Source of the DNA: a virus
Lineage: Duplodnaviria > Caudoviricetes
DNA: 64,000 bases
IMG/VR virus record: IMGVR_UViG_3300008107_000089
Location: 868-64,867 of that record
Reading direction: 5' to 3' (one strand)
This document shows, in pieces, positions 35,008 to 35,144 of this stretch (position 1 is the stretch's first letter; each line of letters begins with the position of its first letter). The translations under genes and the position numbers were made by a program. A model generated the notes under the pieces. It saw only the letters and a list, made by a program, of their open reading frames with translations, was not told where the DNA came from and did not search any database.

Positions 35008-35040
35008 ATGAAACGAAAGATAACTAAACGAAAACGATAG
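35008..35040 (+). CDS. Putative minigene MKRKITKRKR
   Basis: ATG AAA CGA AAG ATA ACT AAA CGA AAA CGA TAG after an A-rich leader; followed by a hairpin. Confidence 0.4.
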   Translation: MKRKITKRKR

Positions 35041-35070
35041 TCTCCCTCTAGTAGAAGAGGGAATGAATAT

Positions 35071-35144
35071 ACCCTCTTAACTCAGATGGATAGAGTACTA
35101 AACTTTTAATTTAGGAGTCACAAGTTCGAATCTTGTAGGGGGTA
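35071..35144 (+). tRNA. tRNA-Lys(TTT)
   Basis: CTAAA-CTTTTAA-TTTAG; GTTCGAAT T loop. Confidence 0.88.

Follow-up and report, generated by a model that had tools for sequence, protein, structure and literature searches.

Amino-acid operon attenuators such as trpL, hisL, pheL and thrL carry a short leader open reading frame (ORF) that is rich in codons linked to the product of the operon and whose stop codon lies beside the first arm of the switch. In the translation-attenuation leaders of erm and cat, a drug-stalled ribosome exposes a ribosome-binding site, and T-box riboswitches, which have no leader ORF, bind tRNA directly and control synthetase or amino-acid genes. Here we describe an element with features of these systems upstream of a tRNA-Lys(UUU) gene in a 64,000-nucleotide (nt) stretch of viral DNA (Duplodnaviria; Caudoviricetes), called the window below, which spans positions 868 to 64,867 of IMG/VR record IMGVR_UViG_3300008107_000089 and covers almost all of this 64.9-kilobase (kb) record, itself an estimated ~38% complete. 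The element comprises a mini-ORF encoding MKRKITKRKR*, a hairpin next to its stop codon and the 5' strand of the tRNA. The reading that we favour, with a confidence somewhat short of even, is that these three parts form a ribosome-gated RNA switch that resembles an attenuator and whose output would be the folding of the tRNA.

All long ORFs of the window lie on the plus strand, as do the features described here. The tRNA array comprises 23 tRNA genes (34920-37459), with one further tRNA-Leu in the window (ARAGORN, Rfam). A 77-nt spacer separates tRNA-Phe(GAA), the upstream neighbour (34920-34993 by ARAGORN; Rfam, 43.5 bits), from tRNA-Lys(UUU), the proposed regulated target (35071-35145 by ARAGORN; 35071-35144 by Rfam, 63.4 bits). 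The 14 nt between the 3' end of tRNA-Phe and the mini-ORF form an A-rich start region that lacks a Shine-Dalgarno motif (CACAAACTATAAAA, 34994-35007). The mini-ORF then occupies 35008-35040, from an ATG at 35008-35010 to a TAG at 35038-35040, 31 nt ahead of tRNA-Lys, and its start codon and first Lys-Arg-Lys codons make up a conserved core, AATGAAACGAAA (35007-35018). Its four Lys codons are AAA, AAG, AAA and AAA. All three Arg codons are CGA, which is unexpected because CGA provides only 6.2% (36/578) of the Arg codons in the 64 long ORFs of the window; stop codon usage in these ORFs is ordinary (TAA 47, TAG 10, TGA 7). A 2-nt gap (TC, 35041-35042) leads from the stop codon to a hairpin with the 5' arm TCCCTCT (35043-35049), the loop AGTAGA (35050-35055) and the 3' arm AGAGGGA (35056-35062), and the A/U-rich linker ATGAATAT (35063-35070), which also is the RNase P leader, connects the hairpin to tRNA-Lys. 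The 5' arm mimics the 5' acceptor strand of tRNA-Lys, which begins ACCCTCT (35071-35077), and the 3' arm is consequently an anti-acceptor arm: AGAGGG is complementary to 35072-35077 and, together with the preceding A, could form 7 base pairs (bp) between 35055-35061 and 35072-35078, for which the linker would be the loop. The hairpin itself has 7 bp and a folding energy of -11.2 kcal/mol (z -2.6; 2 of 200 dinucleotide shuffles as stable); a slightly different cut gave z -2.3, with 7 of 200 shuffles as stable. The mini-ORF with its four Lys and three CGA codons, the hairpin 2 nt past the stop and the complementarity of AGAGGG to the tRNA had been pointed out in an earlier note on this DNA, and all three were borne out.

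In common with trpL-type attenuators, the module has an ORF of few codons, equipped with start signals, immediately before a gene (35008-35040), a leader enriched in codons tied to the product (4 of 10 codons in the window are Lys codons, which tRNA-Lys(UUU) reads, and the family keeps K2 and K4 fixed), a stop codon by the first arm and, in silico only, mutually exclusive pairings between which ribosome position could choose. Unlike them, it lacks a terminator output, the hairpin being followed by ATGAATAT with no plus-strand U-tract. The last strand in the competition is a tRNA's 5' acceptor strand, and the regulated step would thus be tRNA folding and RNase P processing. Its product is, moreover, the same tRNA that reads the leader codons. 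The likeness to erm and cat leaders is that a ribosome in a very short ORF would remodel an adjacent hairpin post-transcriptionally; here, however, the remodelled partner is a tRNA, and neither a drug nor a downstream coding gene is involved. What the module would share with a T-box is a response to the state of a single tRNA, but a cmscan of 33000-43000 at E values up to 1 found no T-box or other cis-regulatory family and returned only tRNA, tmRNA and weak chance matches.

Relatives of the window were found INDEPENDENTLY of the motif, via a 512-residue protein encoded just downstream of the array, which yielded 26 viral loci. The array loci that reach the Lys gene are six in number and form three pairs (L003/L004, L005/L015 and L007/L009), all with AAAATGAAACGAAA before tRNA-Lys; the conservation in related arrays that the earlier note had named as a check was observed at six of six loci. 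The 12-nt core AATGAAACGAAA occurs once in each of them and once in the window. In L003 and L004 the ORF reads MKRKTTKRKHK* and is followed by a hairpin with the same arms as in the window and another loop, and in L007 and L009 MKRKQ* is followed by the hairpin GCCGCTC / GAGTGGC ahead of a tRNA that starts with GCGCTCG. In L005 (1855-2044) and L015, an intact tRNA-Lys(CUU) begins 4 nt past MKRKRIYK* and stands in place of the window hairpin, with tRNA-Lys(UUU) coming next. By alignment, the last 15 nt of the window ORF (35026-35040) are a second copy of AAACGAAAACGATAG and equal nt 4-18 of the five-codon ORF MKRKR* in L117 and L183. The window ORF hence seems to descend from a five-codon ancestor by an in-frame duplication of 18 nt, after which the stop codon still lies beside the hairpin.

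A scan of viral contigs with the 15-mer alone gave at least 119 stretches. Among the 119 matches listed, the next downstream tRNA was tRNA-Lys in 15 (14 UUU; one CUU followed by UUU) and never any other type, the remaining stretches having no downstream tRNA. Later scans, which demanded either a tRNA-Lys-like anticodon loop or degenerate MKRK codons plus a T-loop word, enlarged this set. The same pattern was present in 108 stretches of prokaryotic genome contigs, which represent 48 distinct modules. Each of these precedes a tRNA-Lys(UUU) gene, and the assemblies that carry them include Undibacterium isolates, Lachnospiraceae, Chthonomonadaceae and Bacteroidota; in the eight prokaryotic loci checked, the module lies within an array of 3-33 tRNAs. 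More than 10 Undibacterium assemblies (L365, L366, L369, L373, L407, L409, L414, L432 and others) have a common MKRK leader before tRNA-Lys(UUU), for example MKRKTRHRQMP..., with an internal hairpin GGCATC...GATGCC, and the modules of L365, L366 and L369 sit in arrays of 12-15 tRNAs. Phage contigs and tRNA arrays of bacterial assemblies together provided 165 distinct tRNA-Lys-linked modules. A census of leader ORFs by tRNA type, with ~14 to 178 distinct examples per type listed, revealed no recurrent leader ORF before other tRNA types in 460 records with 3152 tRNAs, the most frequent other peptide reaching 7/99.

Searches against cultured phages returned little. With blastn, the array region gave only tRNA-level matches in a collection that was not scanned for the pattern, so that absence there is not shown; in a follow-up query the match was confined to the tRNA part, and a leader-only query gave chance-level matches. 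With tblastn, a long ORF found one weak match (E 0.4) in Acidovorax phage ACP17, away from any tRNA. Nothing comparable was found in the open-access literature, paywalled papers and supplements lying outside the search, and this widespread module is apparently undescribed so far.

The ORFs of the 165 modules start with MKRK in synonymous codon variants, have 4 codons at the least and 58 at the most, and end at a hairpin, at the edge of the tRNA 5' strand or within it. The stop codon lies at least 20 nt ahead of the tRNA in 48 modules, 7-19 nt ahead in 3 and -6 to +1 nt from the tRNA start in 21; it falls at tRNA positions 8-10 (the U8-A9-R10 triplet) in 42 and elsewhere within the tRNA in 44, and in the remaining 7 no stop lies within the tRNA. 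For 21 of the 22 distinct hairpin-class modules of the exact-motif set, the distance between the hairpin base and the end of the first in-frame stop is -3 to +4 nt, whereas the first stops of the other two frames fall in this range in 0/22 and 1/22. In an enlarged early-stop set (n=48), the stem begins at -9 to +4 nt relative to the end of the stop in 45 modules, and the hairpin reaches -7 kcal/mol or lower in 41. Among the folded spacers, 18 of 19 had at most 2 of 200 shuffles as stable. The stem sequences vary widely across lineages, and the linkers between hairpin and tRNA measure 2-22 nt (24 hairpin-class rows).

Whether these diverse hairpins match the tRNAs that they precede was assessed by duplex-energy permutation tests between the loop plus 3' arm and the first 12 nt of the tRNA. 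In the window, the duplex with its own tRNA has -12.3 kcal/mol, compared with a mean of -6.0 kcal/mol for the tRNA-Lys of other modules. Across 19 distinct modules, own-tRNA duplexes averaged -11.5 kcal/mol versus -7.4 kcal/mol with the tRNA-Lys of other modules, a value as low as which was reached in 0 of 20000 permutations. After conservative single-linkage clustering into nine groups, the corresponding means were -10.5 and -6.0 kcal/mol (0 of 50000 permutations as low), and the own tRNA ranked 1, 1, 1, 2, 1, 2, 3, 1 and 1, that is, first in six groups, second in two and third in one. The early-stop set (n=48) behaved similarly (own -9.8 versus others -6.9 kcal/mol), with -10 kcal/mol or lower in 28 modules and the own tRNA in the best quartile in 33. 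For 589 other tRNAs with a tRNA-free 40-nt leader, which served as control, no such preference was seen (own -5.5 versus others -5.8 kcal/mol), and 7% reached -10 kcal/mol or lower as against 70% of 23 hairpin-range modules (Mann-Whitney p = 6e-13). In several modules (e.g. L177, L261, L192, L136), the pairing extends to tRNA positions 8-12, where a leftover acceptor stem is no explanation. The comparison supports the view that the 3' half of the hairpin covaries with the 5' strand of tRNA-Lys. The ORF start, the antisense match and the placing of the stop by the hairpin are found again, in other sequences, in many phage contigs, which gives decisive support that the feature is beyond chance.

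Comparison likewise supports the view that the mini-ORF is conserved and shows signs that its translation is selected for. A GGAG, GAGG or AGGA motif precedes only 3 of the window's 64 long ORFs, whose starts are A/T-rich like that of the mini-ORF; since A-rich starts are the norm in the window, the missing Shine-Dalgarno motif poses no problem. Such starts presumably fit hosts such as Bacteroidota, the host being named by no result. Of 22 hairpin-class loci, 19 have no more than one Shine-Dalgarno-bearing ORF, and 21 of the 22 leaders lack the motif; in this cross-locus comparison, L136, L158, L187 and L189 have 2 to 8 such ORFs and the window 2 of 55. Loci of the direct and long classes mostly use the Shine-Dalgarno motif, and 23 of their 34 leaders carry it. 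The start signal of the leader thus tracks the gene style of each phage, which, like the tie between the stop frame and the hairpin, is indirect evidence of translation. In the 93 modules of the degenerate scans, Lys2 is AAA in 77 and AAG in 16, Lys4 is AAA in 70 and AAG in 23, and codon 3 encodes Arg in 90 and Ser in 3, with CGA at 72 of the 93, CGT, CGC or CGG at 16 and AGA at 1. Beyond codon 4, Lys and Arg contribute 22% and 14% of residues, respectively, and CGA accounts for 73 of 163 Arg codons later in the ORFs. The 33-nt direct forms keep K2, R3, K4, K6, R8 and K9 constant, while residues 5, 7 and 10 vary freely. Contigs of two RNA and two DNA runs were uninformative either way, no RNA-library contig spanning 35005-35166.

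Constrained folds of leader plus tRNA were calculated for 22 modules with a model that ignores tRNA tertiary structure and cotranscriptional folding order. When the RNA was blocked to 10 nt past the stop, as by a terminating ribosome, 20 of the 22 modules, the window included, were predicted to form 5-7 bp between the 3' arm and the tRNA and no acceptor pairs. When the first 16 nt were blocked, as by a ribosome waiting at codon 2, 14 of the 22, again with the window, kept the hairpin and the full acceptor stem. Unblocked, the acceptor stem was kept in 13. Building on the observed architecture, recurrence, covariation and predicted alternative folds, the switch would work as follows. The array would be transcribed as a precursor. 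With no ribosome near, the 5' arm, as a tRNA mimic, would hold the antisense 3' arm, the acceptor stem could form and RNase P would process the tRNA. A ribosome translating MKRKITKRKR up to the TAG, 2 nt before the hairpin, would unwind the 5' arm, and the freed 3' arm would pair with positions 2-8 of tRNA-Lys, which would prevent the acceptor stem and block maturation. If the first AAA (Lys) and CGA (Arg) codons were read slowly, for instance when functional tRNA-Lys(UUU) is scarce, the ribosome would stay upstream and the hairpin closed, and tRNA-Lys would mature. The outcome would be a feedback loop in which failure of lysine decoding leads to production of the phage's own tRNA-Lys. In the direct forms, the tRNA 5' strand would be covered by the ribosome itself.

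Several points weigh against this switch, in addition to the simplifications of the folding model. Unblocked, 9 of the 22 modules preferred the antisense form, the window among them (-31.1 versus -29.3 kcal/mol), and the two states are thus close in energy in silico. Two modules (L183 and L187) showed no switching, 7 of the 48 early-stop modules have no real hairpin, and in five-codon ORFs a ribosome stalled at codon 4 would be only ~4 nt away from the hairpin. Arg3 is as fixed as the Lys codons, which a Lys-only sensor does not explain. A conserved 44-residue protein in the long class implies that the ORF may have, or have had, a role at the protein level. The modules are mutually related, most scans were motif-based and the counts are not independent events; because the later scans required tRNA-Lys-like features, only the 15-mer scan tests Lys specificity without bias. 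A good number of phage tRNA-Lys genes have no such module, among them those of L013, L017, L021-L023, Felix O1 and T5, Felix O1 having no MKRK ORF there. Translation in vivo, the sign of the effect on tRNA-Lys and the sensed signal are reached indirectly.

The interpretation offered in the earlier note is, taken as a whole, partly supported. Its proposal that a ribosome at the stop codon opens the hairpin agrees with the predicted fold switches in 20 of the 22 modules but is weakened by the antisense form that the window prefers already when unblocked. Its counterpart, a stalled ribosome that lets the tRNA fold, fits the folds of 14 of the 22 modules, the window included. A Lys-specific switch accords with the tie of the ORF to tRNA-Lys and leaves the fixed Arg CGA codon unexplained. 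The suggested read-through switch was not supported; a plus-strand terminator was looked for in 35040-35075 and not found.

The strongest rival, which we nonetheless consider unlikely, is a leader that is translated for some other reason: to link precursor processing to ribosome activity in general, to make a short basic peptide or to yield a message that becomes non-stop after RNase P cleavage, the hairpin class keeping the ribosome beside the tRNA. The mRNAs of arfA and brfA are non-stop by design, and the direct and long classes recall them, since a stop inside the tRNA (42 modules at positions 8-10 and 44 elsewhere, with 7 more lacking any stop within it) would be removed by RNase P; the products are likewise small and basic, and a gene for transfer-messenger RNA (tmRNA) is close by in the window (41289-41673, 77.4 bits) and encoded by several relatives. 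The window ORF, in contrast, keeps its own stop, so that the non-stop idea does not apply to it, and searches with the long ORFs gave no sequence similarity to ArfA, BrfA or any solved or named family. The richness of the peptides in both Lys and Arg past codon 4 and the conserved basic protein of the long class would suit a peptide function, whereas ORFs of 4-5 residues, which make up 25 of the 158 stop-containing ORFs, are unlikely as sources of a product. A leader of this kind also does not predict an arm antisense to the tRNA that is held by a mimic arm. Phage lambda bar minigenes act by peptidyl-tRNA drop-off and are unlinked to a tRNA gene or a tRNA-matching hairpin; like the module, they are phage ORFs only a few codons long whose action would vary with tRNA supply. 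In phage T5, the small ORF T5.065 (L462, NC_005859 32162-32407) ends with a TAA that abuts position +1 of tRNA-Lys(UUU), which lends this rival some further weight since an unrelated ORF stops exactly there, but T5.065 has 55 residues, no MKRK start, no similarity to the module and no hairpin before the tRNA. The tmRNA of the window specifies a proteolysis tag that ends in ALAA, and relatives L006-L011 have tmRNA genes in or beside their tRNA arrays.

The long class encodes a conserved basic protein of ~44 residues with no stop ahead of tRNA-Lys. Its ORFs (L091:7333-7476, L135, L102, L111, L302 and L069) share the consensus MKRKxKVPKARNPVAAxAxRxGAGVHGKTxKAxRRAxK. An ArfA-like rescue factor, suggested by a seeming resemblance of the long MKRK proteins to ArfA, was dropped because Pfam and NCBIfam gave nothing relevant for five long ORFs at E values up to 1. 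A profile of 13 long ORFs matched 0 PDB chains at E values up to 10, the best PHROGs match of the long ORFs was an unnamed family at only E 0.03, and searches for a named family or solved relative retrieved 10 unnamed relatives from the protein database and unnamed clusters from the Atlas. In a GC-richer subclass, MKRKxKPxxxxGPK... (L316, L319, L321, L327, L332, L338, L344, L350 and L323), a conserved hairpin GCCCG...CGGGC lies inside the ORF, which runs into tRNA-Lys.

To an element that acts at the RNA or DNA level only, be it a hairpin for precursor processing or stability or a terminator of an antisense transcript, with the ORF incidental to an A-rich spacer, we give little chance. Short ORFs do arise easily in such spacers, the core AATGAAACGAAA is strongly conserved in its nucleotides, and CGA is favoured among Arg codons. 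A lenient scan found the hairpin terminator-like on the minus strand, from 35063 to 35042 with the tail ACTATCGTTT; the T-run of this tail is interrupted, however, all long ORFs of the window run on the plus strand, which has no terminator here, and the nearest minus-strand ORF of at least 80 amino acids overlaps tRNA-Phe, with no minus-strand gene close by. The in-frame stop at the hairpin base (21/22, against 0 and 1 in the other frames), the synonymous variants, the start signals that follow local gene style and the match to the own tRNA 5' strand would all go unexplained.

Equally slim, in our judgement, is the prospect of a relic without present function, in which the mini-ORF would be the decayed 5' end of a longer MKRK gene and the hairpin the acceptor stem of an internally deleted tRNA-Lys copy. 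It draws on L005 and L015, where a tRNA-Lys(CUU) with the arms TCCTCCT / AGGGGGA sits exactly at the place of the window hairpin TCCCTCT / AGAGGGA, on the variable ORF length in the lineage of the window (5, 8, 10 and 11 codons) and on a relative contig without the whole cassette. This contig, from run X16, has a loose end at window position 34985, where the 3' end of tRNA-Phe is joined directly to a sequence resembling the Lys-Trp spacer and the mini-ORF, the hairpin and tRNA-Lys are all missing. Unrelated hairpins in at least nine sequence clusters each match their own tRNA, however, and some pair with tRNA positions 8-12, which is impossible for the remnant of an acceptor stem; the stop has stayed beside the hairpin despite the in-frame duplication of 18 nt, and ARAGORN and Rfam detected no trace of a tRNA in 34994-35070. 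We also rejected a repeated promoter or protein-binding motif, the core 12-mer being single-copy in the window.

Other features were noted in and around the array. Upstream of tRNA-Phe, a promoter-like site (34671-34699) is followed by a conserved non-coding stretch of ~175 nt, and a strong hairpin (~34882-34909) with a T-run up to 34919 directly precedes the tRNA; hairpin and T-run are kept in L003, L005 and L009. The sequence CCCCAGGGC (34826-34834) could pair with the 5' arm of this hairpin as an anti-terminator. An RNA-library contig is identical to 34707-34874, and Rfam found nothing in 34671-34919. This region may control read-through into the whole tRNA array.

The 130-nt gap between tRNA-Trp and tRNA-Arg(ACG) contains, at 35250-35376, an acceptor-like stem GGGGAAG / CTTCCCC and a T-arm-like hairpin GGTTCGAATCC. 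Its fold has -27.2 kcal/mol (z -2.2), it is missed by ARAGORN and gives a partial tRNA match of 23.5 bits in Rfam, and it may represent a tRNA-like RNA that contains a long insert; L003 and L007 have no counterpart at this position. The motif TCTTTGACATATTG in the spacer ahead of tRNA-Trp (35152-35165) recurs before the tRNA-Lys of L017 (9449) and, altered to GTCTTTGACATATTGA, in the X16 contig; the window contains it once exactly and three times with 2 mismatches, a number no higher than chance. In three distant relatives, one of them on a 405-kb contig, a tRNA with the anticodon CTA, labelled tRNA-Pyl by ARAGORN, was found (L016:4519-4592, L018:3956-4030 and L019:4519-4592) and is a possible amber suppressor.

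In excerpted text of PMC10264068, tRNA-Lys(UUU) is described as cleaved by PrrC. According to excerpts from PMC11464382, the PARIS effector AriB cleaves tRNA-Lys and the tRNA-Lys of phage T5 rescues infection; the tRNA-Lys(UUU) that follows T5.065 is the one reported there to neutralise PARIS. The ribosome-gated switch is plausible in that, by these excerpts, tRNA-Lys is cut by both PrrC and PARIS and phage tRNA-Lys can rescue infection, a link to PrrC-type nucleases that we offer as context only. In a wider form, which we regard as conceivable and rather doubtful, phages and mobile arrays would possess a 'tRNA attenuator', in which leader codons for tRNA-Lys(UUU) and tRNA-Arg(ICG) measure decoding and a mimic/antisense hairpin or an overlap gates maturation by RNase P. 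It would act as a sensor of host attack (PrrC, PARIS), releasing the replacement tRNA only on collapse of lysine decoding.

Why phages carry tRNAs is an old question, and the excerpted parts of both papers indicate that phage tRNA-Lys can defeat tRNA-cleaving defences (PMC10264068, PMC11464382). If the ribosome-gated switch is true, it would be the first ribosome-mediated control of a tRNA's own maturation, and would suggest that the supply of phage tRNA is regulated by decoding demand and not constitutive. The module is small, portable and directly testable and exists in at least 165 sequence variants, and would then offer a natural part for sensing tRNA depletion.

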